DNA of 64,000 nucleotides from Candidatus Saccharimonadales bacterium (GTDB lineage Bacteria > Patescibacteriota > Saccharimonadia > Saccharimonadales > OMJO01), in the NCBI GenBank assembly GCA_035480035.1, contig DATIID010000008.1, forward strand, positions 74,401 through 138,400. The letters are read 5' to 3'. Position 1 is the stretch's first letter, and every line of letters starts with the position of its first letter. The notes below the pieces were generated by a model. It ran no database searches, was not told where the DNA came from, and was given only the letters and a program-made list of their open reading frames with translations. The position numbers were made by a program, and so were the translations under genes. This document shows, in pieces, positions 11,905 through 38,893 of this stretch.

Positions 11905-11906
11905 TG

Positions 11907-13810: not shown

Positions 13811-13881
13811 TTACCCCTTGGTCCCTTGGATTATATCATGCCAAAGAGATTAAGCTTGACCTGTTAATAATCCTAATCTTG

Positions 13882-15561: not shown

Positions 15562-15651
<90 letters not shown>

Positions 15652-15686
15652 TAACAGGGGTAATTATAGCAATGGTTAGGTGTTAT

Positions 15687-16364: not shown

Positions 16365-16570
16365 GTTGTAATACTTATGTTGTAAATATCCACAGGCACG
16401 GTTGCACCTGTTGAATATACTAAGCTATACTGATAGGTAACAAAAATTGCAAGTCAAAAATGATCTAATCATAAGAGGGAAAGCCGTCATATTTATCATC
16501 TGAGTAGGTCGGCTAATTGGGGAACCGCTGTGGCGGACTACTCATATTAATAAAGTGGAGGGTAACAACG

Positions 16571-17160: not shown

Positions 17161-17577
17161 TTAGCCACCTGCAGTTTGTGTCTTGTTTAGGACGAACTTG
17201 ACGATTAGCTGAGCTAATGCCACGATGACCAAACCGACAATCGCGTACAGAATGGTATTCTTTGCACCCGAAACGGCACCAGCGTCACCGTTAGATGTAA
17301 CGTACTTAAGACCACCGATGATGATCATGACTACACAAACTAGACCAACAACTACTGAAAAGATGTTGATGGCGATTGTAACAATGTTTTGCACAACTGT
17401 TACAGCGTTGTTTGCTGAAGTACAGCTAGTTGCCGCCAGGTCAGCGTTAGCACCACAAGACAAGTGGTTAGACCCAGTTAGCACTGCAGCTCCGGCAGTA
17501 GCAGGCGCAGCCAGCGGTGTTAAGAACAAAGCCGACATTGTGCCTATCATTAATAATTTTCTAATTGCTTTTATCAT
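17161..17577 (-). CDS. VirB2/TrbC-like T4SS pilin family protein, paralog 1
   Basis: Signal peptide; variable Cys-containing segment; two hydrophobic helices separated by the short polar loop KYVTSNGDAGAVSGAKNT; conserved C-terminal ILYAIVGLVIVA helix. Topology is that of VirB2-type pilins. Confidence 0.55.
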   Translation of the reverse strand: MIKAIRKLLMIGTMSALFLTPLAAPATAGAAVLTGSNHLSCGANADLAATSCTSANNAVTVVQNIVTIAINIFSVVVGLVCVVMIIIGGLKYVTSNGDAGAVSGAKNTILYAIVGLVIVALAQLIVKFVLNKTQTAGG

Positions 17578-17657
17578 TTTATAGACCTTTCTTATTCTAT
17601 TGTATCTACTTATACCATAACCATTTTAGATATAGCAATAGTGTTTTTCAATACTAA

Positions 17658-18032
17658 TTATCTTATCTTGTTTAAAACGTATTTTACAATGCCTTGCGCC
17701 AAGGCCGCAACAATGATTCCAACTATGGCATAGATCAGGGTGTTTTTAGCACTCGCCACGGCATTTGGGTCGCCATTGGAAGTAATGTATTTGAAACCAG
17801 ATATGATTACCATAACGACGGCGACAAAGCCGATTACGACGGCGAAAAGCTGAACCGATTTGGCCGCAGCGCTTGGAATATTAGTACTACCGGCCGGAGC
17901 TGTACAACCAGTACCCAAACCCGCGCCATTACAAACTGCCTGTTGAGCGGCCGAAGCAGCCATAGCAACAACTGGTGTCAGTAATATGGTCGCGGTGATG
18001 AAAGCTATTACTAAGTTAATAAATTTTCGCAA
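17658..18032 (-). CDS. VirB2/TrbC-like pilin family protein, paralog 2
   Basis: Same architecture; loop KYITSNGDPNAVASAKNT; 2 Cys in the variable region. Confidence 0.55.
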   Translation of the reverse strand: MRKFINLVIAFITATILLTPVVAMAASAAQQAVCNGAGLGTGCTAPAGSTNIPSAAAKSVQLFAVVIGFVAVVMVIISGFKYITSNGDPNAVASAKNTLIYAIVGIIVAALAQGIVKYVLNKIR

Positions 18033-18047
18033 AATATTTCTCCTTTT

Positions 18048-18473
18048 TCATAGTATATGATTTAAAGCAAAGGCAATTGTAGCTTGAGCTGAAACTGCCA
18101 CGATTAATCCAACTACGGCGTAGAGTAAGGTGTTTCTGGCAGTAGCAACTCGTTGGGCATCGCCTCTGGAATTCATAAATTGAAAACCAGAGTACAAGAT
18201 AACTGCCACTGATGCTAGACCAATTATCCAACTGAGTATTAATGACGCCTTGATTATAACGCCGTTATTGCCAGCAAACGGGTTGGCTGAATATGACTTG
18301 CAAGCAACCGAAGCAGTCGCCGAGCCTTGGCACACAGGCAGGGTTTTCGCGGTAGCACCTCCAGATGTCGGGCGGTTAAACGGATTGAAGGCCAGGGCTT
18401 GGCTAGACTGTAACAATACAAAGCTAGTGGCTAGTAGCAAGATTAAGGCAAGGCTTGTTTTAAAGTATTTCAT
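18048..18473 (-). CDS. VirB2/TrbC-like pilin family protein, paralog 3
   Basis: Same architecture; loop FMNSRGDAQRVATARNT; 2 Cys. Confidence 0.55.
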   Translation of the reverse strand: MKYFKTSLALILLLATSFVLLQSSQALAFNPFNRPTSGGATAKTLPVCQGSATASVACKSYSANPFAGNNGVIIKASLILSWIIGLASVAVILYSGFQFMNSRGDAQRVATARNTLLYAVVGLIVAVSAQATIAFALNHIL

Positions 18474-18763
18474 GACGTTACCTTAGGAATGACAAACGCT
18501 ACGATTGAATAGGCCATAATAGCCACTACTAAACCAACGATGGCATAAAGAATCGTATCTTTGGCTCTGGCGGTTGCTTGTGGATCGCCTCGCGACATGA
18601 CGTATTTAAAACCACCCAACGCGATAATAAATACGGCGATGGCGCCTAAAGTCGCCAATATGGCGGTGACAACATTGTGAATGGTAGCTGAACTGGGAGT
18701 AGCACTCGGCAAGCTTTTGGGACGGTTTATATATACGGCTACCAGATAGATTAGAGCGTTCAT
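18470..18763 (-). CDS. VirB2/TrbC-like pilin family protein, paralog 4 (short, no Cys-containing variable region)
   Basis: 97 aa; helix-loop(KYVMSRGDPQATARAKDT)-helix core only; overlaps paralog 3 by 4 nt and paralog 5 by 1 nt (translational coupling). Confidence 0.5.
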   Translation of the reverse strand: MNALIYLVAVYINRPKSLPSATPSSATIHNVVTAILATLGAIAVFIIALGGFKYVMSRGDPQATARAKDTILYAIVGLVVAIMAYSIVAFVIPKVTS

Positions 18764-19164
18764 TAAGTACCCCCTAGTCGATTGCCAATAAATCCAACGG
18801 CCGAGGCGGCAATGACTGCAATAACTGCGCCGATTAAAGCATTAACTATAGTACGACGGGCTTCTGCGGTTTTATCTGGTTCGCCCTGGCTGATTAGATA
18901 AGTAAAGCCGCCCCATATAACAAAGGCAACTGCTACCAAGCCGGCAATTCTCATGACTATATCCAGAGCCGCTAAACCGATTAGCCAATATTGTCCCCAG
19001 CTATGAATAGTTACTTCACATTTACCAGTCAAAGCACTCTTGGAATAGGACAAATACTTGTACCACCTTGGCAAAGCAAAAAAGTTGCTAGCTTTACTAC
19101 AAGTTACTGCCGGGGCGCCAAAAAACCGAAGTTGAGTTAGGGTATACGTCAGAAAAGCGTACAT
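18763..19164 (-). CDS. VirB2/TrbC-like pilin family protein, paralog 5
   Basis: 133 aa; loop YLISQGEPDKTAEARRT; 2 Cys in the N-terminal region. Confidence 0.5.
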   Translation of the reverse strand: MYAFLTYTLTQLRFFGAPAVTCSKASNFFALPRWYKYLSYSKSALTGKCEVTIHSWGQYWLIGLAALDIVMRIAGLVAVAFVIWGGFTYLISQGEPDKTAEARRTIVNALIGAVIAVIAASAVGFIGNRLGGT

Positions 19165-19165
19165 C

Positions 19166-19840
19166 CTAGAAGATACCTCCCGGCACTAACCACTGAATGA
19201 ATGACCAGAAGAAACCATAGGCTACTAGCGCGAAGACGGCATTAGCGATCTTGCGACGAGCTGCGGCCACGGCATTGGGGTCGCCACGAGAAGCTGAGTA
19301 CTGGATCCCGCCGACCACAATCATAATGGTGACGAGTATGCCGACGCCGATCCCCAGAAAATCAATTGCCGGGAACAACCACCTATTAAAGATCCGGCAA
19401 CTGGTTGGCGAATCACTAGCCCTAAGCAAACACGATCGTTCGCCTTTTCTATCTGCTAGTTCGGCCACGGAAACTGGAGTGCTGCTATTGCCCCCGCCGT
19501 TGCTGTTATTGCTACTGTTATTACCAGTTTTATTTCCGCCACCTTTATTACCACCAGTAGCAAAGACACCAGATGTACAACTGGCTGGCTGATAAACAAA
19601 GCCGCCGCCGCCGTTTGCTAGCTGTAATATGTAACATTTGTTAGCTACCGGATAGCCGCCGGTCGTCACCGGCCAATGACCACAACCACCAACGCCACTA
19701 GGAGCAACTAGCGATTGATAACAGCGCGGCGCGGCGGCAAATACTGATTGAGTATTTAATATTATTGCGGCAAAGGGCATAAGAATAGCCGCTAAAATAA
19801 CAATAAGTGCTTTTAGGTTTTTATTTTGTTTCATTTTCAT
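19166..19840 (-). CDS. VirB2/TrbC-like pilin family protein, paralog 6, with extended Cys-rich and G/N/S-rich N-terminal domain
   Basis: 224 aa; signal peptide; 6 Cys; low-complexity GGNKGGGNKTGNNSSNNSNGGGNSS tract; then conserved helix-loop(QYSASRGDPNAVAAARRK)-helix core. Confidence 0.45.
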   Translation of the reverse strand: MKMKQNKNLKALIVILAAILMPFAAIILNTQSVFAAAPRCYQSLVAPSGVGGCGHWPVTTGGYPVANKCYILQLANGGGGFVYQPASCTSGVFATGGNKGGGNKTGNNSSNNSNGGGNSSTPVSVAELADRKGERSCLLRASDSPTSCRIFNRWLFPAIDFLGIGVGILVTIMIVVGGIQYSASRGDPNAVAAARRKIANAVFALVAYGFFWSFIQWLVPGGIF

Positions 19841-19969
19841 CTGTCTTGATTATAATTCTGGTTTTTAGCTTAAGCAAGTCTATTATACAATGATTCTCCA
19901 AATCCAAGTTCGAAATCAAAATGCATAAGCATTTTGCAGCCGTTTAAATTTGTTGCTAGTATTAAAGAT

Positions 19970-22924
19970 ATGAAAACGGCTAATCCCGTTCGCTATAGGC
20001 TAATTGTGGCTATTTTTTTGTCGCTTTTTGGGTTTACGTTTGTAACTCAATTGATTCATCCCCAAACTGTTCAAGCGGTCACCAACTGTGCTCACTGGGA
20101 TAGAAGTGTCATTCTTTGTCCCGGCGGCCAACTTTTTTACGACAACCAGATTGATGGTAACTACACTTATGTCCTTCAAGGTGATCCCGACAGTTGCGAT
20201 GACACAATTAAGAAGCTTACAAATAACAATACTCAAGCTACTCTACATACCTCGGTACCAGATCCGGTTAATGGTGGCTGTAAAGAGACCACTTCCGGTA
20301 TAACGCTTTCTTTAAACGCACAGTCCAGAATGCCGTTTGTGTATGTGGACGCGACACACATTATTACCAGTGACGGTAAAACTTCCTACACTTATAACAG
20401 TGCCTTAAAACTGTTCGTCGAAGTCGGCGGCGACAAATGTAAAGACACACTTAAAGTAATTGCTGGCGGACCTAATGGAGCCAGCGCGACCGTACAAGTT
20501 ATCGCCAGCACTGGCGGAGCAAATACTGCATACGATAAATGGGCTCAAGAACTAGCATTCGACAAAACTAAAAGACAAAGCATAAGTGGTTGTACCAAAT
20601 ATACCAACGTTGCGGCCAATACCTACAAAGTCAGTACCCAATTTTTAAAACAACCGTCGATAGCAAACCCGGCTATCGCTGGCAGCAACGGTGGTGGTAG
20701 TAATGGTGGTACAGGCGATGGTAGCGGCGGCGGCGGTGTCAATTTTGATTGTGAAGTAAGGTTTTGGAACCCGTTAACTTGGATACTTTGCCCGGTCGTT
20801 GAACTACTTCAAGGTTTCTTAAACTGGTTTGACGTGCAGATTGACGACATGTTGGAGGTTAATCCCAATTATATTGACACCACGAAGACTGAAGGCAAGG
20901 GCTTTTATCAAGCTTGGTCGTCAATTCGTACTATTGCGTTGGTGTTGATAGTGATTTTCGGATTGGTCATGATAATCTCGCAAGCAGTTTCGGTCGGGCC
21001 GTTTGACGCTTATACTATCAGAAAGGTTTTACCCAGGTTGGTGATAGCAACAATCGGCATTGCCTTGTCTTGGAATTTAATGATAACGGCGATAAATCTA
21101 ACTGGCGATCTGGGCGGTTCGATCAGAGGTATCCTGAGCGCACCATTTGATAATCTGACGCTACCGTCACTTGGGCAGGGCGCCACTGGTATATTTGCTG
21201 CCGGTATTGGTACATTTTTAATCGGTACCAGCTTTTTGGGTGCCGTTAGTCTACTATTAACCGCCGTTTTGGCAGTTTTAATTGCGTTCTTTGTACTAAT
21301 AATTAGGCAAATTGTAATAGTGTTGCTGATCATCTTGGCCCCTATTGCCATCGCCTGTTATGTTTTGCCGAATACTTCCAGGGTCTGGAAACTGTGGTGG
21401 GAGTCATTTAGTAAGGCCCTGCTGATGTTTCCCATGATTGTAGCCTTAATTGTCGCCGGACGAATCTTCGCCAAAGTATCGGCGGTCGACGGCGATGTGC
21501 TTCACCAGGTTATCGCTTTCATTGCTTATTTCTTACCGTATTTCCTAATCCCAGCCACGTTCCGTCTAGCTGGTGGTGCTTTATCGACCATTGGTGGCTA
21601 CGTCAACAATCAGGGTAAGGGCGGCTTTGACCGACTTAAGCAATTCCGTCAACAACAGTACAAGACAACTATGGATAAAAACCGGGGGGGTAACCGTCTG
21701 CTTGGTGGTAGAACTGACCCGACGACTGGTAAAGCCATTAATTTTCGCGGTAGAATTAACCGGGGCATGCAAAACTCTACTTTGTTGCCAGGTGCAATAG
21801 CAGCTGGGGGTGTAGTTCGAGGAGTAAGAGATGCCCGTGGACAAGTTAAAGCAATTAGGCGAACAGCTGACTTTGCAGCCGCACAGGAAATTATGAAAGA
21901 TCCAGCTTTTGGAATGCTAGGTGGTAACGAACATAACATGGTGGGTATGCTTGGTACATCTCGTTCGGATATAATTACTAAACTTAGAAGCACAGATTCT
22001 TATAAAGATGCCAGCGACCAAGACTTGAACGAATTAGCTGACACTATCGAGCAACTTCAAAGGGTTCATGGTGCCAAACCATTACAAATTGCCGCTTTCA
22101 TGCAAAAGGCGACCAGCAAGAATGCCTTTAACGAAGCCGGCCAAATGGAGAGAGAAATTGCTGAAGTGGCTGGTGGTGATGGAATCCTGGCCAGCAATCT
22201 AATAGCCCACGCCCGCTCGGCTCAAACCCAAGCTGGCCGAGCCGATAATGTTACTGCTTTTGGCGAGCAGTTTGGGATTGTTGACGATGTTATGCACAAT
22301 CGTATTAAAATCGGCGAACGCACCGAAATTGATCAAGAGACTGGAAAACCAAAGCAAGTACCAATATATGACACTACCAAGAATCCCGAGCAAGTCCAGG
22401 CTGCCGCCGGTCAACGCGTCATACGTGGAGCTTTGGAAACTACTAGTCCAGGCCAAATCTTAGGTGGTACACAAAGAAGTGTTAGCAATTTCATGGCGGA
22501 ATTAGGCCGGCAGTGGGCAGATGCCATTGATCATGGCACAGTAGATGAAATGACGAATGTTGGCGCCAGAATGGCCACCTTCAGGAATGCCATGGGCGGC
22601 GCCACGCCTCAAGTCAGGGAAGAAGTATCAAAAATGCTAGATTCAGCCGGTGTCAACCTTGACTCTGACGAATCTTCTGACCAACAATTAGCCAGAAGGA
22701 TTGCCGACGCTAACATTAGCAGGAGCGGAACACCATTATCTGAAACTGATCGAATTAAGAGTACAAGGACTGTTATGGAAGAAATTCGAACCAAGGCCGG
22801 CCTGTACGATATGGGCAATCGCGAATTAACGCCCGAGGAACGTGCCAATCAGCAGATGATGATGAGTGGTGGTCAGCCACCTGGAACCGGTATCCCGCCC
22901 TCGGGGAACCCCGACGAAAGATAA
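19970..22924 (+). CDS. VirB6/TrbL-like polytopic T4SS membrane protein with N-terminal Cys-rich ectodomain and long C-terminal extension
   Basis: Track ORF starts at TTG 19934; the ATG at 19970 gives a canonical signal peptide (MKTANPVRYRLIVAIFLSLFGFTFVTQLIHPQTVQA). About 270-aa Cys-rich region; Gly-rich linker; about 6 TM helices (aa ~320-560); about 440-aa hydrophilic tail; position is divergent from the pilin operon. Confidence 0.4.
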   Translation: MKTANPVRYRLIVAIFLSLFGFTFVTQLIHPQTVQAVTNCAHWDRSVILCPGGQLFYDNQIDGNYTYVLQGDPDSCDDTIKKLTNNNTQATLHTSVPDPVNGGCKETTSGITLSLNAQSRMPFVYVDATHIITSDGKTSYTYNSALKLFVEVGGDKCKDTLKVIAGGPNGASATVQVIASTGGANTAYDKWAQELAFDKTKRQSISGCTKYTNVAANTYKVSTQFLKQPSIANPAIAGSNGGGSNGGTGDGSGGGGVNFDCEVRFWNPLTWILCPVVELLQGFLNWFDVQIDDMLEVNPNYIDTTKTEGKGFYQAWSSIRTIALVLIVIFGLVMIISQAVSVGPFDAYTIRKVLPRLVIATIGIALSWNLMITAINLTGDLGGSIRGILSAPFDNLTLPSLGQGATGIFAAGIGTFLIGTSFLGAVSLLLTAVLAVLIAFFVLIIRQIVIVLLIILAPIAIACYVLPNTSRVWKLWWESFSKALLMFPMIVALIVAGRIFAKVSAVDGDVLHQVIAFIAYFLPYFLIPATFRLAGGALSTIGGYVNNQGKGGFDRLKQFRQQQYKTTMDKNRGGNRLLGGRTDPTTGKAINFRGRINRGMQNSTLLPGAIAAGGVVRGVRDARGQVKAIRRTADFAAAQEIMKDPAFGMLGGNEHNMVGMLGTSRSDIITKLRSTDSYKDASDQDLNELADTIEQLQRVHGAKPLQIAAFMQKATSKNAFNEAGQMEREIAEVAGGDGILASNLIAHARSAQTQAGRADNVTAFGEQFGIVDDVMHNRIKIGERTEIDQETGKPKQVPIYDTTKNPEQVQAAAGQRVIRGALETTSPGQILGGTQRSVSNFMAELGRQWADAIDHGTVDEMTNVGARMATFRNAMGGATPQVREEVSKMLDSAGVNLDSDESSDQQLARRIADANISRSGTPLSETDRIKSTRTVMEEIRTKAGLYDMGNRELTPEERANQQMMMSGGQPPGTGIPPSGNPDER

Positions 22925-22949
22925 TCAACCTAAATTCTAAAGTAGATTA

Positions 22950-22978
22950 TTGACTATTTCGCTAATGTTTGCTATAGT
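22950..22978 (+). promoter_or_regulatory. Strong sigma70-like promoter TTGACT-17-TATAGT, leaderless transcript for the downstream gene
   Basis: TTGACT 22950-22955, 17-nt spacer, TATAGT 22973-22978; ATG at 22988 lies about 9 nt downstream, no RBS. Confidence 0.4.
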
Positions 22979-22987
22979 ATCATTACT

Positions 22988-24364
22988 ATGTCAGAACTTC
23001 CTCCTGATACAAAAACTATAGAAACACCAACAGTCACCGCCGAAATTCCAACTGTTCCGATGCAAGAAGTTAATGCTGGTCCTACAGAAGCATATATATT
23101 AACCGACGAGCCTGGTGTGGCTTGGCTAGGCATGAAACGATGGGTTACGGCATTTAGAGCAGGTATGGCTGAGCATGTCATCAATCAGTCCGACATTAGC
23201 CATCGAGTATCTAGTCATTCAGCCGAATATGCCCTTCAAGAAGATCCTGTCCATACGGCGGCTCTTTCGACACTTAAGAAACCAGGTAGCGTTAGGGTAA
23301 TAAAGGGTGGTTTTAATCTTGAGAGTGGCGATTCCAAAATTAAGTTTGAGCCTGGCATTGTACCAAAATATCATTCAGAAACTGGGGAATTTACAGGAAT
23401 TGATTTTGATTTTGGGCTCAACATAAATGATAGGAACAAAAAAATTAAAGATGGGATCGACGCCGAAGCAAGAGGCGAGTCCCAAAAAAGAGATGTAGAC
23501 AAGGAAGAAGTTTATATTCTCTCCGAACCCGTAGAACGACGCCGGGCCGAGCGGCCCGTCACCTGGCCAGAACGCCGAGCTTCTCTATTTCGAGCACGCC
23601 AGGTTAGAAAAATGAATAATTTACGAATTTCAAGTGGTCGTTTGAAAAAAGACTATTCCACAAAAGCCCAAGAACTTGGCAGTATAGCGCCACGAGATCT
23701 ATTCAGTGCCGAAAGAGGAATGCATGGGCGCAACGTTAGGACGTTTGGCGAAAGACGCGATTATGCTAAAGCCTATCGACAACAACGTAAAAACACTGAG
23801 GGTGGCATAATTAAACGAGCCCTGGGATTGCCAGTTGGGTATGACCGAATTCGCGAAACTACTGAACAGGCCATTCGCGGTGAGTCCCCTATGCAAAAGC
23901 TAAATATTCGTCGACAAGAGAGCGCCAAAGATAAAGCCAAAGGTCTAAGAGAAGATGTTGAGGTGCTCCGCGCACAACACCAGCACGCCAAAGGACGACA
24001 ACAAAAACGTAACAACTATATGGATGAAATAAAGCGTAGGAATACTTACTTTGCGTCGCAACCGGCAAACATTGACAAAACCGAGGCCGAGTTTGTAGCT
24101 GCTTCACCTTTGGTCACAAAATTAAAGAAGCTATCAGCTCGCGCCACTAAATCGCGTGCCGCAAAATCGACGGTTGATATTGCTAGACTAAACCATCAGA
24201 TTCGTAGCCAAACCGACAGTGATAACAAACAGGTATTAGCCGAGAAATTGACCCGGACTCGACAAAAAAAGGCCGGCTTAGCTTCGAAGGCTTACAACCG
24301 ATACAAGGATATAAATCGACGCCGAACTGAAACCGGTAAGGTTGATGTAACCGGCTGGATGTAA
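22988..24364 (+). CDS. Hypothetical highly basic, low-complexity (K/R/E-rich) protein within the T4SS-like locus
   Basis: 458 aa, no TM, predicted largely disordered/charged; no recognisable domain. Confidence 0.3.
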   Translation: MSELPPDTKTIETPTVTAEIPTVPMQEVNAGPTEAYILTDEPGVAWLGMKRWVTAFRAGMAEHVINQSDISHRVSSHSAEYALQEDPVHTAALSTLKKPGSVRVIKGGFNLESGDSKIKFEPGIVPKYHSETGEFTGIDFDFGLNINDRNKKIKDGIDAEARGESQKRDVDKEEVYILSEPVERRRAERPVTWPERRASLFRARQVRKMNNLRISSGRLKKDYSTKAQELGSIAPRDLFSAERGMHGRNVRTFGERRDYAKAYRQQRKNTEGGIIKRALGLPVGYDRIRETTEQAIRGESPMQKLNIRRQESAKDKAKGLREDVEVLRAQHQHAKGRQQKRNNYMDEIKRRNTYFASQPANIDKTEAEFVAASPLVTKLKKLSARATKSRAAKSTVDIARLNHQIRSQTDSDNKQVLAEKLTRTRQKKAGLASKAYNRYKDINRRRTETGKVDVTGWM

Positions 24365-24423
24365 TTCGGCAAACTATTATCTGATTTAGCTATTGGCTAC
24401 AGAGGTTAGCTCCTTTATACTTA

Positions 24424-25653: not shown

Positions 25654-25685
25654 CAATGTTTATCCGAAGGTGGGTGATATAAAAA

Positions 25686-26648: not shown

Positions 26649-28563
26649 GAAAATTGACGCTGTCACCGCCGCCGAACAACAACGCTTGCTTGAAGAACAA
26701 CAAGTCCAAACTGCTTTTCAAAAAGGCATTACGGCGCTGCGCGATTTTATTGCACCCAGTTCCATCGAGTTAAAATCGACTTTTTTCCAGATTGGTACAC
26801 GTTATGCTCGAGCTTACTACGTTTATGGCTACCCGAGGCAGTTATTTACTGGTTGGCAGAGCAGCATAATCAATCTTGACGAAGTAATTGACCTGTCGAT
26901 GTACATTTACCCAGTGGAAAGCCAAGTTGTGTTGGAAAACCTGCGCAAAAAAGTCGGGCAACTGGAAGCTGGTTTGCAGATCGACGCCGAAAAAGGCCGC
27001 GTTCGAGATCCGGCCAAACAAATTGCCATTTTAGACGCTGAAGAAATGCGCGACAAATTGCAGGTCGGGGAGGAACGCTTCTTTAGATTTAGCATGTACT
27101 TCACGCTTTACGGTAGTAGCCAGGAAGAGTTGGAGTTTGTTTCGCGCAAAGTTGAATCGATTCTTGGACAACAGTTAATTTTTTCTAAGCCGGCCACGTC
27201 TCAGCAAGAGCAAGGTTTAAACAGTACGATTCCGCAGTTTATAGACCAATTGCAGATTAAACGTAATTTTAGCACTGGTGCGCTTAGTACCAGTTTCCCA
27301 TTCACCTCGGCTGATCTAACTCAAGAAAACGGTATCCTTTATGGCATCAACATGCACAACTCAGGTTTAGTTATCTTTGATCGGTTTACTCTAGAAAACA
27401 GCAATGCCGTGGTGTTTGCGAAGTCTGGCGCCGGTAAATCTTTCGCGGTTAAGTTGGAAGCTTTGCGAAGTCTGATGATGGGTACGGAGATTTTTATCAT
27501 CGACCCAGAGAACGAGTATCAGCGTATGGCTGAAGCCGTTGGCGGGGCATATATTCGACTGAGCCTAAACTCTGCGACTCGAATCAATCCATTTGACCTA
27601 CCGACTGTAGTGGATGTTGAGGAGGCCGACAACGCCTTGCGTAGTAACTTAATTACCTTGCATGGATTGCTGCGTCTAATGATGGGTGGTGCTCAAGCCG
27701 TCCTGGCCAGTGGTTCGTCAACTGCCGCACCGGCGCTATCTCCAGTTGAAGAGGCCGATCTGGATTCCTCCCTAATTGAAACTTATGCCCGCGCCGGCAT
27801 TACCAATGACCCCTTAACTCACAAGTCACCACCTCCCACCATTAATGATTTATATGACACACTCCTGCACATGGGTGGCTCGGGACCGCAATTGGCTTCG
27901 CGTCTACGCAAATATACCAGCGGCACATTTGCTGGCATTTTTTCTCAGCCCAGCAATATCGACATCAACAATACTATGGTGGTCTTTAACATCCGCGACC
28001 TAGAAGACGAATTACGACCGGTCGCTATGTACATCGTGCTGAACTATATTTGGAACAAAACTAAGGCCGACCAACAACGTCGTATCTTGGTCGTGGACGA
28101 GGCCTGGCAATTGATGAAATACGAGGACTCGGCTAATTTCTTATATTCGTTAGCGAAACGGGCTCGTAAATACAACCTTGGTATTACCACAATCACTCAG
28201 GACGTCGAAGACTTTATGGGTTCCCGTATGGGTCGGGCGATTGTGGCCAACGCCAGTATGCAGGTGCTTATGAAGCAAGCGCCATCGGCCGTTGATGTGT
28301 TATCTGATGTTTTTAAGTTGACCAGCGAAGAAAAGAAGCGGCTCAGCCAATTCCCGGTCGGACAAGGTCTATTCTTTGCAGGACAAAACCATGTGCACAT
28401 TCAAGTAGCGGCCAGCGCGACGGAAACTGGTTTGATCTCAACAACACCAGTCGCTAGGCAAGCAGCTGCAGCTCAGGCTAGTCAGTCAACCGGCGAACTT
28501 GACCAAGCCCAGGGCAGTATCGAACTGAACAATCAGCCACCACCGCCAGCGGGGGGAGTATAA
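26641..28563 (+). CDS. virB4: VirB4/TrbE-family T4SS ATPase
   Basis: IAPSSIELKS...IGTRYARAYYVYGYPR VirB4 region; Walker A AKSGAGKSF; Walker B RILVVDEAWQLM; 640 aa. Confidence 0.7.
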   Translation: MAKKIDAVTAAEQQRLLEEQQVQTAFQKGITALRDFIAPSSIELKSTFFQIGTRYARAYYVYGYPRQLFTGWQSSIINLDEVIDLSMYIYPVESQVVLENLRKKVGQLEAGLQIDAEKGRVRDPAKQIAILDAEEMRDKLQVGEERFFRFSMYFTLYGSSQEELEFVSRKVESILGQQLIFSKPATSQQEQGLNSTIPQFIDQLQIKRNFSTGALSTSFPFTSADLTQENGILYGINMHNSGLVIFDRFTLENSNAVVFAKSGAGKSFAVKLEALRSLMMGTEIFIIDPENEYQRMAEAVGGAYIRLSLNSATRINPFDLPTVVDVEEADNALRSNLITLHGLLRLMMGGAQAVLASGSSTAAPALSPVEEADLDSSLIETYARAGITNDPLTHKSPPPTINDLYDTLLHMGGSGPQLASRLRKYTSGTFAGIFSQPSNIDINNTMVVFNIRDLEDELRPVAMYIVLNYIWNKTKADQQRRILVVDEAWQLMKYEDSANFLYSLAKRARKYNLGITTITQDVEDFMGSRMGRAIVANASMQVLMKQAPSAVDVLSDVFKLTSEEKKRLSQFPVGQGLFFAGQNHVHIQVAASATETGLISTTPVARQAAAAQASQSTGELDQAQGSIELNNQPPPPAGGV

Positions 28564-28584
28564 TGTGGCAAAAGGGTATTTGGG

Positions 28585-31500
28585 GTGAGTAATAACGACT
28601 TAGAGGAACGCGAAACTAGCGGTGACGATTTTTCCAAAAATCTCGATGCCAAATATTCAAAGGCTGAACGCAAAAAACTTGAAGAAAAATCTCAAAAAGA
28701 AGCCGAATCACCAACCACTGAGCAACTCGCTAAAGACCGGCAAGAATCGGCCAAGTCGGCCGGACAAGATGACGGTAACAGTATTCCGTTTCGACAAGAG
28801 AAAAAAAGCCGCTTCAAAGGCAAAGGTAAGGGGGGTAGCCGTAGTCTTGCCAAAAAAGCGCTGATTGGTGGCGGCATTGGTGGCGGCATCGTCGCGCTAA
28901 TAATTACGATCTTTGTTAGCTTGTTGCCACTTAAGTTAATTCACATTTTTGAAAACTTGCAGCAACATTTTTTTGGTACTAGCGAATCGGCTGTCCAAAA
29001 CCGCTCCGAAAGATTACTTAGCGACTACCTCAAAAAGAAAGTAGCGCCAGGTATGACTATCGGTGGACCTTGTGGTCGCTGGAGCACTATTGATAAAAAT
29101 TGTGTCAAAAACTCACCAACTGACTCCGCGTCTGGCCGTTTATATAACGCTTGGCGGGACGCCCGAATTGAGAACGACTTATCGTCTAAATTCGGCATTG
29201 AGCTAGCCAAGACCGGTCCAACCCAATTCAAATTAAGCATCAACGGCACTGATTCAGGTGTTAATGTTGATGGCTGGTTAAACTCGACTAATGACAAAAC
29301 AACATTGTGGACAGCTATTGGTGGTCGGTCAGACGTCCGTCAAACATTTCGGCAAGCCTTTCAGAACGAGACATACCTTAAAAGGATTATGTATCGCTTC
29401 AAGGTCGGACGTTTACTGGAGCGCAAGTACGGCATTAAGCGGTGTGTGTTTGCTTGTAACGCCAAAGATAAGTTCGATGACTGGGGCGATAACAGCAGCC
29501 AAGCCTTTAAGTTAATGGTGATTCGCCGGGTCATAATTCCACACACCCAGTTTGTCGGCTTTGCGTTAGAGTGTATCATCACCAATACCTGTGGCAATAA
29601 TACGACTACGGATGTTACCCAAGACGGTGAAGACAATCAACGCCGTGACACGCTTGAGAAAAAGATAGCCGCAATGCTGCAGAAAAACGCTGTCGAGTAT
29701 AGTGCCGATTCGGTTTCTAAAATCGCGACAGTGGCCGAGCAGATATTAAAATACGATAAAGCTGGTGGCTTTACGAATTATTTAATTCAAAGCATTGCCG
29801 ATTCGGTTAGTAGCGATCTGGTTAGTGGTGCCACCGAAAAAGCGATACCAATTATTGGCTATATTGATATGGCGGCCAAGGTCTGGAGTACTGTAGCCAA
29901 CGCCGGACCGAAGATTAAGCGCTGGACATTCGCTATCACGACGACGGCGATGATTACGTACTATATGATGGGCGCTTCGCAAGCCAGCGAGATTAAAGCC
30001 GGTCATACTAACCATCAGGTAACAGGGTCTTTGGTTAGCGCCCTAGGCAATACCGCCGGCAGCGCCGGCCACCAAAACCAGCCAGCCGAAAACGCACCGC
30101 TGTATACCGCCCTGATAGGTGGTAATGGCCCGCCGCAGCGTTCGATTATTAGTACTATGCTACCTAGCGCTTTAGCGGCCGATCCGGCTAATCCAGATTT
30201 ATCGCCAAAAGCCTACACCTGTGATGACGGTAGTATATTGAATACCGCAAAAAGCCTAGTTTGTCCCGAGGAAAGTGTTAAAGCCAGTAATATTTTTGTA
30301 AAAATTTCCGATTTGTTTCATAGTCCACCATTAAGCGGGATAACTACATTCTTCAATATTTGGAATAAAAGTATCGGCACGATCTTGGGTTGGGTTGGTA
30401 AAATAGGTGCTCTCGGGTGGAATGTTGTTGACAATATTTTAAATGGTATAGTGCCCGGCTATAAAAGCGCCAAAGATGCCATTTTGGCGCAGGTCGGAAA
30501 GTTACTCGAAGCCGTGGCCCAATGGCTCATACCGTCGCCGATATCTGACAACATGAGCGGTGCCAGATCGTTTGATATGTTAGCCGGTGGGGCCGATGCC
30601 GCCGGATCCGACTATTCGCATTATGGTTTAGGTGCCAAGCGGGTAACTGATCAAGTGGCGGCCAGGATAGAGCAAGAACAAGAAGACCAGGCTTTACAAG
30701 ATTTTCAAAGCCGGCCTTTCTTTGCGCGGATGTTTGATGTTCAGGATGCTCATTCGCTAGTCTCACAGCTAGCTATGGATGTGCCGATAAGCACCAACAC
30801 TATTGTCCAAAACGGTTTGGCGTCATTTATCTCAAATCCATTCACGAAAATATTCAACGGTTTTGCCGCTATGTTGCCGGGTGGCCAAAAAGTCCATGCT
30901 GCCCCAATCAATGACCCGTTTGGTATTCCGCAGTTCGCTTATGATTTAAATGATCCTGAAGTCCAGGCCGCCATGGGAGTAGACCCAGACACACTGACTG
31001 ATTCGGTTTGCGCTCAGATGAATAAAGACTGGGCTAACGGTACTGGTCAATTTGCTGGTACGCTAAAGATTGATCCCGATACCGGCAGTGATTACCACAC
31101 AAAAGTTGATCCCTGTTTATTAAATTCCGCGGCGGCCGGAAGCGCTGGTGGCTACTTCAGTACTGATGTATTGTCAGCGTCTGATCTAGGCCCGCCATCT
31201 TCTAACAACGGCAACAACAATCCGCCACCAACAGGAGGCGGAACTGGTGGTTATCATAATCCGTTTCATGATATGACTAATGTGTTGCAGAGCCGTATCG
31301 ATGAAGGCGTTGACTACGTCGCTAAGTCTGGCACGTCTGTGCCGGTTTACGCTATCGGCAATGGTGTAGTTGATATAGTTTCTTCAAACAGTACTTTTTA
31401 TACGACTTCGGCCGGTAACGCTGACTGGGTAACTTATCACCTAACTGATGGTCCGGCAGCTGGCAAATATATCTACATTGCCGAGGGCTGCCCCATTAGC

Positions 31501-31767
31501 ACAATTAGCCCGGGCGATAAAATCACCTGGCAGACGCGGCTGTGCGACATGGAGCCAGACAGCATTGAGATGGGCTGGGCGTCTGGTGGCACCATCCAAA
31601 CACCGGCGGCCAGCAATGTCTATATTGAGTGTCATCAAACAGCTTATGGTGTCAATTTTAATCAATTACTAGTTAAATTAGGCGCACCGACTGGCCATCC
31701 GGACACTGGTGGCGGAGCTTGTCTAAATATCGAGGGTAGCTTGCCGGGAGGGTGGCCGTCGTGGTGA
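28585..31767 (+). CDS. Large bitopic surface protein with C-terminal LytM/M23-like domain (catalytic residues apparently degenerate); PrgK/VirB1-analog candidate
   Basis: 1060 aa; charged N-terminus; single TM (IGGGIGGGIVALIITIFVSLL); C-terminal GVDYVAKSGTSVPVYAIGNGVVDIV matches the M23 core, but the HxxxD His and the HxH motif are replaced (IDEGVD; NVYIECHQ). Confidence 0.4.
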   Translation: MSNNDLEERETSGDDFSKNLDAKYSKAERKKLEEKSQKEAESPTTEQLAKDRQESAKSAGQDDGNSIPFRQEKKSRFKGKGKGGSRSLAKKALIGGGIGGGIVALIITIFVSLLPLKLIHIFENLQQHFFGTSESAVQNRSERLLSDYLKKKVAPGMTIGGPCGRWSTIDKNCVKNSPTDSASGRLYNAWRDARIENDLSSKFGIELAKTGPTQFKLSINGTDSGVNVDGWLNSTNDKTTLWTAIGGRSDVRQTFRQAFQNETYLKRIMYRFKVGRLLERKYGIKRCVFACNAKDKFDDWGDNSSQAFKLMVIRRVIIPHTQFVGFALECIITNTCGNNTTTDVTQDGEDNQRRDTLEKKIAAMLQKNAVEYSADSVSKIATVAEQILKYDKAGGFTNYLIQSIADSVSSDLVSGATEKAIPIIGYIDMAAKVWSTVANAGPKIKRWTFAITTTAMITYYMMGASQASEIKAGHTNHQVTGSLVSALGNTAGSAGHQNQPAENAPLYTALIGGNGPPQRSIISTMLPSALAADPANPDLSPKAYTCDDGSILNTAKSLVCPEESVKASNIFVKISDLFHSPPLSGITTFFNIWNKSIGTILGWVGKIGALGWNVVDNILNGIVPGYKSAKDAILAQVGKLLEAVAQWLIPSPISDNMSGARSFDMLAGGADAAGSDYSHYGLGAKRVTDQVAARIEQEQEDQALQDFQSRPFFARMFDVQDAHSLVSQLAMDVPISTNTIVQNGLASFISNPFTKIFNGFAAMLPGGQKVHAAPINDPFGIPQFAYDLNDPEVQAAMGVDPDTLTDSVCAQMNKDWANGTGQFAGTLKIDPDTGSDYHTKVDPCLLNSAAAGSAGGYFSTDVLSASDLGPPSSNNGNNNPPPTGGGTGGYHNPFHDMTNVLQSRIDEGVDYVAKSGTSVPVYAIGNGVVDIVSSNSTFYTTSAGNADWVTYHLTDGPAAGKYIYIAEGCPISTISPGDKITWQTRLCDMEPDSIEMGWASGGTIQTPAASNVYIECHQTAYGVNFNQLLVKLGAPTGHPDTGGGACLNIEGSLPGGWPSW

Positions 31768-33140
31768 CACCCAAACGCCATCTGAGATTTACTCGATCTG
31801 GGTCAGCATTTGACTTGGTATTGATGTTGTTGGTTGGTGTATTACTAATTAATTTAACTTGGCCGGCTATCGTGTCGGCAGCTAGCCTTTCACAAGACGA
31901 CAAGGAAGCTATCGTTGGAAACTGGCCGCACTGGACGACCCAAAATTTTGCCAGTGATACTTCCACCACCGGCGGTGGAACTTGTGGTGGTTCAAACGGT
32001 GCCACTGATGGCGGCAAAGTTTATTTTTTGGGTGACTCCATCGGCGTTAGAACAACTCCGGCTTTAACCACCGCTTTAAGTGCTAAAGGCTTTAAGCTAA
32101 AGTCAGATTCGTTATCGTCTCGTACATTATCGGGCGGAAGTGTTTCGCCCGACGGCTTAACGGCCGCTCGACAAGCCGCCGACAAAGCCTTCATTAAAAC
32201 GGCTAACGTAATCGTGATTGAACTGGGTACTAATAGCTCAGGATTTTCAAATGCTAACATTGATAAGTTAATTAGCGAAATTCGGCCAATTGCTCAACCA
32301 GGTGCAAAATTTTATTGGGTTGATACAGTCGTGGTTGGTCGTGGTAATGCATATGCGTCATCTTTTAGCGCAACCAATCAGACTATTTATGGCCACAAAT
32401 CAATCGGTAATTACGCCGTTATATCTTGGAACAAGAAAGTATTGGGCGCTAACGCCAATCCCCTTAATATTAGGCCTAGTGCCGTTGATACAAATGGTTA
32501 TATTGATAAGACTGACCATCTAGGTGTACATCCGACTGTTCCAAAGGGCTCTAATGCTTTGGCTAATTTAATTACCACGGCCGTTGTTAATGGCGGCGGG
32601 GGTTGTAGTGGTGGTGGTACTGTTGCTGGTAACTGTAACGAAGATAAGGTGTGGAATTTCTTTATTGGCAAGGGCTTATCCCAGGTCGCTACCGCCGGTA
32701 TCATGGGCAACTTTCAGGCCGAGTCCCACTTTGAACCACGACTTGTTCAATATGGCGGCCGCAACTATAAAGGTCAGGTTTCAGTCCAGGGCCAACCCTC
32801 CAGTCTTGCCGACTATTTGAACGCCGATGGCACGACTGGCTACGGCATTGCCCAATGGACAGCAATTGGCAGACAAACTGGTTTACACAATTATGCTACT
32901 AGTAAAAAAACCATTGACGGCAATCTAACTACCCAGCTTGGTTGGGCCTGGACGGAAATTACCAGTCCGTATTTTGCCCACGTTTATCTGGTCTTAAAAA
33001 CCTCAAAGAATATTGCTGAAATCAATTCGGTCTTCGGACATGAATATGAAGGCTATGGTACAAATACTGAAGCCACTCGTCTACAATTCGGTCAGGATAT
33101 TTTAAACGCCCTGGGTGGCGGCGGAAGTTCGTGTACTTAA
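31752..33140 (+). CDS. Secreted/membrane-anchored SGNH(GDSL) hydrolase fused to a lysozyme-like domain (putative peptidoglycan esterase/hydrolase)
   Basis: N-terminal TM/signal; SGNH blocks FLGDSIG, ELGTNS, DHLGVH; C-terminal AGIMGNFQAESHFEP...GYGIAQWT resembles the phage-tail-lysozyme-like muramidase family (tentative recall). Confidence 0.45.
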   Translation: MAVVVTPKRHLRFTRSGSAFDLVLMLLVGVLLINLTWPAIVSAASLSQDDKEAIVGNWPHWTTQNFASDTSTTGGGTCGGSNGATDGGKVYFLGDSIGVRTTPALTTALSAKGFKLKSDSLSSRTLSGGSVSPDGLTAARQAADKAFIKTANVIVIELGTNSSGFSNANIDKLISEIRPIAQPGAKFYWVDTVVVGRGNAYASSFSATNQTIYGHKSIGNYAVISWNKKVLGANANPLNIRPSAVDTNGYIDKTDHLGVHPTVPKGSNALANLITTAVVNGGGGCSGGGTVAGNCNEDKVWNFFIGKGLSQVATAGIMGNFQAESHFEPRLVQYGGRNYKGQVSVQGQPSSLADYLNADGTTGYGIAQWTAIGRQTGLHNYATSKKTIDGNLTTQLGWAWTEITSPYFAHVYLVLKTSKNIAEINSVFGHEYEGYGTNTEATRLQFGQDILNALGGGGSSCT

Positions 33141-33172
33141 GATGTTAAGTAAATTGAGAAAGAACTATCATC

Positions 33173-34687
33173 ATGAGAAATAAACTCGCGGCACTAGTCC
33201 TAATATTTGTGGTGTTAGTAGCGGCGATTTGGTTTAAGGGCCAGTCATTTCTAGAAATTACAATTAATAACGGAGCGGGCCAGCTGTCCTATAGCTTGGT
33301 TAATCAAAATTCTCAAAAAATAATTAGCCTAAAAAATTCTTCAAACCATATCAAAAAAAGATTACCAGTGGGCAACTATGAATTGGTGGCAACTAATGGC
33401 AGTGGCAGTTTTTTGGCAGTGGCCAAAACCCATGGTTTCTTTCGGACTACAAGTATTAGTGGGAGTCTACAACCTGAGCGGGAAAGACAGTTTATTGGTA
33501 ACGACCCCGGTTCATGTATGAATTACATTGATAAAATTTTAATTTCTTATGATTGTGGTAGTTTGTTGAGCGACGCGGTGATTCATGCACCCGCTACGGC
33601 TAAGTTACCCAGTTACATCTACAAAAATCCAGCTGAAACTTTTGGCGGCGGCGAATCAGGAGGTGAGGCTTCAGAGATCACGCTCAATGGTTATATCCAG
33701 GGCACAATTACTATTGGCAATGACTTATGGGCTTTAATCCAATCGACCGCTGGCAAAACTGGACCGGTCATAGCAATTGCTAAATTGAAAAATAATCTGG
33801 CGTTGGATGATCGGGTCGCTTTAAGTGACCTTGATATTGACCTGTCGTACAATATAAAGCCGTATAAAAGTGGGTTTATTGTTTATGACTCAACGTTTGG
33901 TGGCGATATTTATTATTACGCCACGCCTCAATCTAAACCCGATATATTAAGTTTTGTCCGTCCTCAGAGCCGTGATTTAGCGGCCACCAGTTTAGACACT
34001 CACGACAACAAGATTCTAATGTTTTACTCACAACCAACTACAGACTCAGGTAAAGCAACTTCGGAAATTGCCCTTAGTTCAGATGGTCATGAGTCCCATT
34101 TTAAGCTTAACAAAGCCTATATTAGGGTTGGCTTTTGTGGCTCTGATAAAGTTTGTGCACTTGGCGACAAGGGTTTGGACATTTACAACATTAGTGGCAA
34201 AAAGGCCGCCATGTTATTCGCGGTCAACGGCATTACCGATTTCAGGACGTATGGTGACAGAGTAATTGCGGTTCGTCAAAAAGATATCATCGATTTAGAC
34301 GTTAGTTCGCAAACCGGCTTCATTTCCTACAGTTTTGGAGATTACGAGTATGCTGACATTCAAGCCGACCAGACCGGTTACATTTTGCGCCTAAACGGCC
34401 CAAGCGGCAGCTCAGCCTTATTGATTGATGAAAAAAGTAATGTCACAACGGCGATTGATAAGAAAGTTTTGGAGATTGGCGCCTGGTCCGAAGTAAAGTC
34501 GGTTTCGGCTTATGGCAATTACGTCTTTATTTCGCCGAATATTGGTGAGCCTGATCAGTACAACAGTCAACTGCGGATTTTTGACTATGATCCAGCTAAA
34601 CGCCAAGCGGCCACTAATAGCATTAACCAAAAGTTGCCGCCTTTAAATATCGATAAAAAATATACGGTTGTTAATTTACTTCAATAG
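33173..34687 (+). CDS. Hypothetical N-terminally anchored extracytoplasmic protein (last gene of the T4SS-like block)
   Basis: 504 aa; N-terminal TM (LAALVLIFVVLVAAIW) then a large beta-rich-looking domain; no motif recognised. Confidence 0.3.
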   Translation: MRNKLAALVLIFVVLVAAIWFKGQSFLEITINNGAGQLSYSLVNQNSQKIISLKNSSNHIKKRLPVGNYELVATNGSGSFLAVAKTHGFFRTTSISGSLQPERERQFIGNDPGSCMNYIDKILISYDCGSLLSDAVIHAPATAKLPSYIYKNPAETFGGGESGGEASEITLNGYIQGTITIGNDLWALIQSTAGKTGPVIAIAKLKNNLALDDRVALSDLDIDLSYNIKPYKSGFIVYDSTFGGDIYYYATPQSKPDILSFVRPQSRDLAATSLDTHDNKILMFYSQPTTDSGKATSEIALSSDGHESHFKLNKAYIRVGFCGSDKVCALGDKGLDIYNISGKKAAMLFAVNGITDFRTYGDRVIAVRQKDIIDLDVSSQTGFISYSFGDYEYADIQADQTGYILRLNGPSGSSALLIDEKSNVTTAIDKKVLEIGAWSEVKSVSAYGNYVFISPNIGEPDQYNSQLRIFDYDPAKRQAATNSINQKLPPLNIDKKYTVVNLLQ

Positions 34688-35751: not shown

Positions 35752-35777
35752 TGTCTTTATTGTACTTGAGTCGTTAC

Positions 35778-38755: not shown

Positions 38756-38893
38756 ATGCCCAAACGAACCTACCAGCCGAAGAAACGACAACGTTCACGC
38801 GAACACGGTTTTATGAAACGCATGGCCACTCGCGCCGGTCGAGCTGTCTTGAAGCGTCGACGAAACAAAGGTCGTACTAGTCTCAGCGCTTAA
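38756..38893 (+). CDS. rpmH: 50S ribosomal protein L34
   Basis: 45-aa [45 protein letters not shown], found by reading the sequence (below the ORF-track size cutoff). Confidence 0.85.

Follow-up and report, generated by a model that had tools for sequence, protein, structure and literature searches.

Introduction

Epibiotic growth of Southlakia epibionticum ML1 requires an 'apparent T4SS' (type IV secretion system) encoded by SEML1_0006-0019, as determined by transposon sequencing (Tn-seq) (Wang et al., 2023, Cell, PMC10633639). The ML1 system is nearest to Gram-positive conjugative systems, its pilin genes are essential, and it includes no recognisable coupling or relaxase protein (PMC10633639). 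In the published annotation table the region comprises, in order, dnaA, dnaN, recF, two small exported proteins, a lysozyme protein, a 1113-aa DD-peptidase protein, VirB4, a 293-aa protein, PrgI, a 998-aa protein, an NTF2-like protein, a 1088-aa VirB6-like protein, six PF18895 pilins, hsp20, comFC (K02242), and tRNA-Ser, and nearly all genes of the cluster are essential, including all six pilins and the lysozyme protein SEML1_0006 (PMC10633639). Here we analyze a similar T4SS gene cluster at positions 17161-34687 of a 64,000-nucleotide DNA stretch from a Candidatus Saccharimonadales bacterium (contig DATIID010000008.1), the whole of which is referred to below as the window.

A survey of the Patescibacteria (Quinonero-Coronel et al., 2025, Microb Genom, PMC12102498) describes a phylum-wide VirB4 clade related to the mating-pair formation class FATA (MPF-FATA), in which TrsD is the commonest partner and PrgI and VirB6 also occur, with VirB2 arrays of 2-11 divergent genes and only rare relaxases. 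The survey also finds dnaA, dnaN, rnpA, and rpmH near virB4 and proposes a gene-dosage effect (PMC12102498); nothing in the window contradicts it. As to function, a 2024 perspective calls the role of the T4SS 'completely unknown' and brings up nucleotide uptake, a 2025 FEMS review restates these T4SS features and speculates on a pilus conduit, and according to a 2026 preprint another Patescibacterium acquires host RNA and has T4SS-pilus-like tubes that extend to the host envelope.

The conjugative MPF-FATA systems of monoderm bacteria (pGO1 Trs, pCF10 Prg/Pcf, and CTn2/CD1110) share with the window cluster VirB4, a TrsD-like protein, PrgI/VirB3, a polytopic VirB6-like protein, and large multi-domain wall hydrolases, and like the window cluster they have no outer-membrane core components. 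They have a relaxase, a type IV coupling protein (T4CP), and an oriT, are located on mobile elements, and employ surface adhesins, usually without a VirB2 pilus, whereas the window cluster is chromosomal, vertically inherited, and equipped with six pilins, and DNA-processing genes are absent from it in cis.

The composition of such clusters, their missing relaxase and coupling protein, their proximity to the origin, and a role in host interaction have already been published (Wang et al., 2023; Quinonero-Coronel et al., 2025; 2025 FEMS review), and the window is accordingly one more environmental example and not a discovery. It concerns the first T4SS that was found indispensable for the organism carrying it, a rare monoderm-type T4SS with VirB2 pilins that is probably central to how ultrasmall candidate phyla radiation (CPR) bacteria live off their hosts. 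A genetically tractable model with the same cluster exists, and the incremental additions made here, namely an ordered set of pilin paralogues, a split VirB4, a hypervariable slot gene, a protein built of a carrier and a hydrolase head, and a Firmicute counterpart, could aid the design of experiments in that model strain.

Identity of the locus and comparison with ML1

The region contains 14 intact open reading frames (ORFs) arranged as two divergent operons, one of six pilin genes on the minus strand (17161-19840) and one of eight genes on the plus strand, running from a VirB6-like protein to a 504-aa protein. The first-pass annotation, made from the letters and their translations alone, had read this region as six VirB2-like pilins, a giant VirB6-like membrane protein, a VirB3-like hairpin, VirB4, and two large hydrolase-like proteins directly abutting recF-dnaN-dnaA. 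The ORFs it listed are intact where it placed them, and family models bear out the pilins, the VirB3-like hairpin, and VirB4; the VirB6-like protein and one of the two hydrolases fare less well, and an ORF it had left unnamed (25686-26648) turns out to be TrsD-like. Because every ORF is intact and conserved, a reading of the region as pseudogenes or artefact is ruled out.

Compared by annotation tables and protein lengths, and not by sequence alignment, the window equals ML1 (SEML1_0001-0022) gene for gene in order and orientation except in a few variable slots. The left flank has the same tRNA-Ser, comFC, and hsp20 genes (SEML1_0020-0022), the sizes in ML1 and the window are similar for VirB4 (612 vs 640 aa), TrsD (293 vs 320 aa), and the big protein that follows VirB4 (1113 vs 1060 aa), and neither cluster has a relaxase or T4CP. 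The differences lie in four places. Between VirB6 and PrgI, ML1 encodes an additional VirB6-like protein (998 aa) together with an NTF2-like protein (SEML1_0012) that is not essential and has no counterpart in the window cluster, whereas the window has one unrelated, basic, near-orphan protein of 458 aa. The ML1 lysozyme protein contains glucosaminidase, lysozyme, and cysteine-peptidase domains, in contrast to a possible SGNH domain and a lysozyme domain in the window; the C-terminus of the ML1 big protein is an M15/DD-peptidase, whereas that of the window protein is a non-canonical M23-like domain found at sub-threshold scores; and the two small beta-sandwich proteins that precede recF in ML1 are replaced by one 504-aa protein.

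Since the six pilins, PrgI, VirB4, and the lysozyme protein each exceed curated thresholds and the gene order is that of ML1, it is highly probable that the window cluster is the core chromosomal T4SS of Saccharimonadia (Saccharibacteria/TM7), orthologous to SEML1_0004-0019. It would be a monoderm-type (MPF-FATA/CD1110-related) T4SS that has lost its DNA-processing half and has kept or gained an array of VirB2 pilins. The earlier proposal of a non-conjugative host-interaction machine in a CPR epibiont agrees with the published reading of the orthologous ML1 cluster, and the Tn-seq data that it had suggested consulting show nearly all ML1 counterparts to be essential for epibiotic growth (PMC10633639).

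Conservation of the cluster and absence of mobility genes

The cluster was compared with the 80 species-representative loci best matching it by VirB4. VirB4 is 78-83% identical over these loci, all but one of which (Dormiibacterota) are labelled Saccharimonadia, Patescibacteria, or unclassified, and the best matches outside the Patescibacteria, on monoderm plasmid replicons, reach 28-37% identity, which places the window VirB4, as judged from sequence identity, in a Patescibacteria clade. The locus order (comF, hsp20, pilins, VirB6, VirB3, TrsD, VirB4, then the big protein, lysozyme, and an extra protein, followed by recF, dnaN, and dnaA) is essentially invariant among the fetched loci wherever the contig extends far enough, so that the synteny proposed for checking is found both in ML1 and in the related loci. 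Within 10 kb of virB4, recF, dnaN, and dnaA are present in 68, 65, and 59 of the 80 loci, respectively, with most of the others ending at contig ends; hsp20 is present in 34 of the related loci and comF in 18. Conservation drops steeply away from the motor, the median identities over the 80 loci being 81% for VirB4, 64% for TrsD, 35-48% for the pilins, 40% for PrgI, 32% for VirB6, and about 30% for the big protein and the lysozyme protein. The preservation of the comF-to-dnaA order across related species argues against a mobile element, and the cluster is by these comparisons a vertically inherited core locus and not an integrative conjugative element (ICE).

An ICE, or its decayed remnant, lodged beside the origin and serving now or formerly for DNA transfer between Saccharibacteria, would account for a VirB4, a TrsD, and a PrgI of the family used by monoderm conjugative plasmids and ICEs, for the tRNA-Ser gene 1.5 kb away from the pilin array, and for a GC content in the cluster slightly above that of most of the window. 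Pfam scans covered the 52 window ORFs of 100 aa or more that are plausibly coding, 15 shorter ones lying within longer ORFs being left out. Among the scanned ORFs there is no match to VirD4/T4CP families (T4SS-DNA_transf, TraG-D, TcpA), no match to relaxase families, and no integrase, and the eight ORFs outside the cluster that have no Pfam match lack a Walker A motif as well. Flanking att-like direct repeats are absent, only short chance repeats having been seen. The earlier statement that VirD4, relaxase, and integrase are absent from the window is thereby upheld for the scanned ORFs, and the combination that would have made this an ordinary ICE, namely VirD4 and a relaxase with an integrase and attachment sites, was not found among these ORFs and the flanks of the cluster. 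The block and its flanks (comFC, hsp20, and recF-dnaN-dnaA) are moreover syntenic over dozens of species and in ML1, a VirB4 identity of 78-83% between species is the pattern of a vertically inherited core gene, and the cluster genes are essential in ML1. With conserved synteny and no mobility genes among the scanned window ORFs the ICE reading is rejected as extremely improbable. In the Patescibacteria generally, T4CP homologues occur in most genomes, mostly far from virB4, the ML1 copy being non-essential, and relaxases are found near virB4 in only 15 genomes (Quinonero-Coronel et al., 2025, PMC12102498).

Given that synteny is conserved, Gly/Ala-rich membrane and linker sequences are a likelier source of the raised GC of the cluster (45-49% in 18001-32000) than recent transfer; elsewhere the window mostly lies at 39-44%, apart from a single 2-kb bin (54-56 kb) that reaches 48%.

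A split VirB4 motor of the monoderm type

The VirB4 ATPase (640 aa, 26641-28563, plus strand) scores 351 bits against the NCBIfam model conju_CD1110, for which the cut-off is 325, and covers positions 182-733 of the 752 in the model. It further matches PDB entry 4AG5 (E = 1e-46), TrwK (E = 6e-6), and the Pfam family P-loop_TraG (E = 4e-27), and a weak match to CedB lies far below threshold. On these matches the protein is identified as the T4SS motor of the monoderm CD1110 / MPF-FATA type; the first-pass annotation had already named it VirB4.

The ORF directly upstream (320 aa, 25686-26648, plus strand), whose stop overlaps the virB4 start by 8 nt, matches the NCBIfam TrsD model NF041427 at 28 bits against a cut-off of 200 (E = 1.3e-6, below the curated score) and positions 2-119 of conju_CD1110 (E = 1.4e-5, likewise below the cut-off). 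On Firmicute and Actinobacterial replicons its homologues are found immediately upstream of virB4 (E down to 4e-21 for those of Firmicutes), and one of them is annotated TrsD. The TrsD-like ORF, which is present in 79 of the 80 loci, is thus predicted to supply the N-terminal part of a split CD1110-type VirB4. The split is stable and not the result of a frameshift, because the two genes overlap by only those 8 nt and are separate in 79/80 loci. An hhalign comparison of the TrsD-like family with the VirB4 family of the window gave no signal, a null result that fits a TrsD matching the part of VirB4 that the window VirB4 ORF lacks.

The next gene upstream (409 aa, 24424-25653, plus strand) encodes the PrgI/VirB3-like protein, with a score of 41.5 bits against PF12666 PrgI (cut-off 27, E = 2e-10) and a hairpin of two transmembrane (TM) segments at residues 18-36 and 48-66, so that the VirB3-like hairpin proposed earlier holds; its tail of ~310 aa has no family match.

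The best plasmid matches to VirB4 are Firmicute, Actinobacterial, and Chloroflexi proteins of the CD1110 type, each with a TrsD-like gene directly upstream. Closest among the non-Patescibacteria in the plasmid collection is that of Pontibacillus sp. ALD_SL1 (NZ_CP062975.1, 351-361 kb; 36.5% identity over 90% coverage). The Pontibacillus cluster has the order of the window cluster, with two PF18895 pilin-like proteins, a TrbL-like protein (779 aa), a TraL/PrgI-like protein (116 aa), a TrsD-like protein, VirB4, and a 1050-aa NlpC/P60+M23 hydrolase that has no BLAST similarity to the 1060-aa protein of the window. It lies beside flagellar genes on an 898-kb non-mobilizable replicon, with no relaxase or T4CP annotated within 14 kb, and it differs from the window in having two pilins instead of six, in not being located at a replication origin, and in belonging to a free-living Firmicute. 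This cluster may be a non-conjugative, pilin-bearing monoderm T4SS outside the Patescibacteria. Since pilin-like subunits accompany related monoderm systems, the pilins need not be borrowed from diderm T4SSs, and the idea in the survey that they were co-opted from diderm systems is weakened by pilin-like genes beside the closest Firmicute VirB4.

An ordered array of VirB2-type pilins

All six minus-strand ORFs at 17161-19840 exceed the Pfam gathering cut-off for PF18895 T4SS_pilin (26.6 bits), with scores of 30.0-49.4 bits, in agreement with the six VirB2-like pilins originally proposed. The model that had been suggested for detecting them, PF04956 TrbC/VirB2, matches pilin 2 below threshold (E = 7e-4). 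The six share a two-helix hydrophobic core and are 22-46% identical in pairs, and all six match the 'Mbov_0395 pilin-like' model of Mycoplasma ICEs slightly below its cut-off. Pilin 1 (138 aa, 17161-17577; PF18895 E = 9e-12), which lies farthest from VirB6, has a signal-like N-terminus and a two-TM hairpin, and its match to the NCBIfam Mbov_0395 model has an E value of 2e-9. Pilin 2 (124 aa, 17658-18032; PF18895 E = 5e-13) is 46% identical to pilin 1. Pilin 3 (141 aa, 18048-18473; E = 4e-7, 30.5 bits), pilin 4 (97 aa, 18470-18763; E = 4e-12), the shortest copy, and pilin 5 (133 aa, 18763-19164; E = 2e-9) follow. Pilin 6 (224 aa, 19166-19840) matches PF18895 at residues 162-218 (E = 6e-7) and has a long Cys- and Gly/Asn-rich N-terminal extension ahead of the pilin core.

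Pilin order was analyzed in 34 related loci with complete arrays. Exactly six pilin genes are present in 25 of the 34, the rest having 5, 7, or 9. The pil6 type adjoins VirB6 in 33/34 arrays, the pil5 type is second from VirB6 in 33/34, and the pil4 type is third in 29/34; positions 4-5 hold mixed pilin types, and in 30 of the 31 arrays long enough to have a sixth position, at the far end of a six-gene array, that position is taken by the pil1 type. The array is an ordered set of old paralogues, which is a modest addition to the published descriptions. Because the positions are kept and all six pilins are essential in ML1, a fixed multi-subunit structure is favoured over a pool of interchangeable antigenic variants, and the positional order fits such a structure better than it fits the analogy to antigenic variation drawn in the survey. 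The pil6 type varies in length from 131 to 297 aa across species, and its variable outer extension makes pilin 6 a candidate tip or host-binding subunit.

Anchored extracytoplasmic proteins and the wall

Three anchored proteins are encoded downstream of VirB4. The largest (1060 aa, 28585-31767, plus strand) has a single TM segment at residues 93-111 and is arranged as a charged N-terminus, the TM segment, an outer module (~760 aa, Cys-rich, and alpha-helical), a Gly/Asn/Pro linker, and a C-terminal domain of ~175 aa. The conserved helical module has no match among solved structures. The C-terminus has sub-threshold M23 matches only (Pfam, E = 0.049; PDB TagE, E = 0.12), and conserved DEGVDY and IExGWA motifs stand where the zinc-binding HxxxD and HxH are expected. 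Homologues of the protein carry bona fide M23, VanY/M15B, SGNH, or M74 domains, which suggests a family made up of a conserved carrier module and swappable C-terminal hydrolase heads. Two homologues (P0017 and P0020) have a PF03372 endonuclease/exonuclease/phosphatase domain in addition to M23, and these hint that a nuclease or phosphodiesterase may be placed at the host interface in some lineages.

The second protein (462 aa, 31752-33140, plus strand) has an N-terminal TM segment and a PF18013 Phage_lysozyme2 domain at residues 296-453 (E = 1e-26), and it takes the VirB1-like role of a peptidoglycan hydrolase. The earlier call of two hydrolases is in this way upheld for the lysozyme protein and not for the 1060-aa protein, in which there is no HxH motif. 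In its N-terminal half (residues ~85-280) the lysozyme protein contains a GDS motif and a weak match to DUF459 of the SGNH clan (E = 0.022), with no match in the PDB; this half may be a candidate peptidoglycan de-O-acetylase fused to the muramidase. The third protein (504 aa, 33173-34687, plus strand), anchored by a TM segment at residues 1-19, is predicted to be all-beta and occupies the variable position between the lysozyme gene and recF, where ML1 has two small, essential, exported beta-sandwich proteins (PMC10633639). It has no Pfam match, and full-length homologues in the same position occur in 7-8 of the 80 loci at 21-35% identity. An AlphaFold2 model made from an alignment with one admissible homologue consists mostly of strands, has a mean predicted local distance difference test (pLDDT) score of 48, and is unusable for a fold search.

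A cluster so rich in anchored extracytoplasmic proteins with wall-degrading heads might be no more than an adhesion, envelope-remodelling, or signalling device, that is, an anchor on the surface or a host-wall junction, built by the pilins and hydrolases, that passes no substrate through a channel. Conjugative pili serve mainly for attachment, and the long variable outer extension of pilin 6 could bind the host. Saccharibacteria, however, attach by type IV pili and dedicated adhesins that are separately essential, and the conserved VirB4/VirB3/VirB6 translocon (VirB4 at ~81%) suggests more than pilus assembly, although VirB4 is also needed for pilus biogenesis. On balance a device confined to adhesion or remodelling is regarded as distinctly improbable.

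The VirB6-like protein and the hypervariable slot

The first gene of the plus-strand operon encodes an extended, polytopic, VirB6-like membrane protein of 984-996 aa (19970-22924); the ORF opens at a TTG at 19934, and the likely start is the ATG at 19970. The protein comprises a signal or anchor segment, a ~290-aa outer domain in which Cys residues are conserved, six or more TM segments, and a hydrophilic tail of ~450 aa. This topology, with its large tails in the form of outer and cytoplasmic domains, fits the VirB6-like assignment made at first sight, to which sequence comparison lends little: the TrbL model matches the window protein with an E value of 0.064 and reaches E < 0.01 in only 3 of 34 family members, and a profile of the family has no VirB6/TrwI match in the PDB. 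In ML1, the gene at the corresponding position, SEML1_0013, received its TrbL/VirB6-like annotation from structure (Wang et al., 2023, PMC10633639).

Between the VirB6-like gene and prgI lies a gene (22988-24364, plus strand) for a soluble protein of 458 aa with no TM segment, an isoelectric point of about 10, and 19% Lys+Arg. No homologue is present in the 80 related loci, and a word-indexed search of 5.8 billion proteins returned only the protein itself. An exhaustive HMMER search of 1.84 billion representatives found a single relative with 44% identity, which occupies the same slot between a VirB6-like gene and prgI. The slot protein and its relative are 41-44% identical, whereas the flanking VirB6-like proteins are 61% and the PrgI proteins 67-72% identical; by this comparison 22988-24364 is identified as a real, fast-evolving gene. 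In about one third of related loci the slot holds no ORF. Where it is occupied, the ORFs encode 100-771 aa and hardly resemble one another; nearly all lack TM segments, and many are basic. The product of 22988-24364 could possibly be a cargo, a chaperone, or a specificity factor. The region's best sigma-70-like match, TTGACT-17-TGnTATAGT at 22950-22978, lies directly upstream of this gene.

Another possibility is that the T4SS is an effector-export machine that injects proteins into the host bacterium so as to weaken or reprogramme it, with the slot protein as one candidate cargo. Effector export is the commonest non-conjugative function of T4SSs and was the original published speculation, and Brucella VirB exports effectors without a T4CP. 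The slot protein is soluble and basic and is less conserved (41-44%) than its neighbours (61-72%), and the slot contents differ in almost every species, as would be expected of a host-facing factor. Set against this, no effector is known, no T4CP is found in the cluster, the slot gene cannot be a universal cargo when the slot is empty in about a third of loci, and one of the two genes in the ML1 slot is non-essential. Export of effectors is therefore considered unlikely, while remaining a more serious contender than a device for adhesion alone.

Proposed mechanism and direction of transport

In the mechanism that would best fit the cluster, the split VirB4 formed by the TrsD-like protein and VirB4 would dock on the membrane by way of the PrgI/VirB3 hairpin and the VirB6-like channel protein, a step for which homology is found here and the assembly would follow established T4SS architecture. 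The motor would then extract pilins from the membrane and polymerise a pilus from the six ordered paralogues, probably with a single major subunit accompanied by several minor or tip subunits. Peptidoglycan, that of the epibiont and probably also that of the host, would be opened by the lysozyme protein and the 1060-aa protein so that the structure could reach the host membrane; enzyme domains are present in this part of the cluster, and peptidoglycan is their presumed target. The resulting tube or contact would be needed for growth on the host, as shown by Tn-seq in ML1 only.

Among the possible functions we tentatively favour, at somewhat less than an even chance, a conduit that imports host cytoplasmic material (nucleic acids or nucleotides) into the epibiont. 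Import is preferred because no coupling protein is encoded in cis and the lineage lacks nucleotide synthesis, because systems lacking a T4CP include ComB DNA uptake and RNA feeding has been reported in a related lineage, and because nuclease-type heads are found on some homologues of the big protein. Helicobacter pylori ComB and archaeal Ced, which are VirB4-based, have no relaxase, and transport inward, have been cited as precedent for uptake by the Saccharibacterial T4SS. ComB, a VirB2-10 set of diderm type, acts together with ComEC, whereas ML1 can dispense with comEC but not with its T4SS, which is a further reason for preferring import by this system. Apart from the generic ATPase fold, the window cluster showed no specific homology to components of Ced or ComB. 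A more elaborate version, in which the six pilins form a heteromeric feeding tube, the slot encodes a lineage-specific cargo or host-specificity factor, and pilin 6 together with the slot protein sets the host range, is a long shot to which we attach little weight; if it is true, a comparison of slot and tip variants across species would provide a handle on the cargo and host of the Saccharibacterial T4SS.

Several points weigh against the reading proposed here. No Patescibacterial T4SS has a demonstrated pilus, channel, or cargo, essentiality derives from a single oral species that is roughly as far from this one as are the 80 loci, and any direction of transport is a guess. Within the cluster, family scans of the ORFs found no match to VirB8, PrgL, or TcpC, the VirB6 assignment is weak by sequence and relies on topology and on the published structure-based annotation, and the 1060-aa protein is not confirmed as a hydrolase in this genome. 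Finally, the scan for VirD4 covered the ORFs of the window, and a homologue may be encoded elsewhere in this genome.

The origin region and flanking genes

The right end of the cluster abuts the replication genes, as had been noted: recF begins 3 nt past the last cluster gene (33173-34687), and recF, dnaN, and dnaA occupy 34690-38483 on the minus strand (Pfam SMC_N, three DNA_pol3_beta domains, and Bac_DnaA, E = 2e-70). The segment that follows (38484-38893) consists of a 272-bp dnaA-rpmH intergenic region and rpmH (38756-38893, plus strand; an L34 ORF), after which come rnpA, yidC, and jag. Three DnaA boxes with one mismatch each lie at 38533-38661 in the intergenic region, which is the likely oriC. 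Over the whole window the number of DnaA boxes (25, compared with 17 +/- 4 expected) is not above chance, and only the trio upstream of dnaA is suggestive. A gene-dosage benefit of the origin-adjacent location is only a speculation, because multifork replication is not known in these organisms.

The two operons are separated by an AT-rich divergent intergenic region of 129 bp (19841-19969), where divergent promoters are presumed to be sited from the orientation of the genes only; promoter and terminator scans gave counts equal to the shuffled expectation. The conserved left flank (15562-17044), identified with ARAGORN and Pfam, contains tRNA-Ser (minus strand), a comFC-like phosphoribosyltransferase gene (15687-16364, minus strand), and hsp20 (16517-17044, plus strand), and an Rfam scan of the window found three tRNAs only. 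Within hsp20, positions 16634-16685 hold an imperfect 27-nt tandem duplication in the N-terminal acidic region (GDDNDVPAA / GDDSDVPAE).

Outside the cluster the remaining window encodes housekeeping and cell-surface polysaccharide functions. A set of surface-glycan genes surrounds the origin region (40756-63941 and 10945-15543) and includes GT1, GT2, and GT4 glycosyltransferases, a Wzy-like ligase, an ABC-2/Wzt exporter, PMT-family mannosyltransferases, GtrA, RmlA, RmlD, a UDP-glucose dehydrogenase, and an epimerase. Positions 54194-55897, within the glycan region, encode an FG-GAP repeat protein of 567 aa, and a 745-aa ORF at 8675-10912 appears to be a fusion of an MFS-like transporter region with a spermidine/spermine synthase domain.

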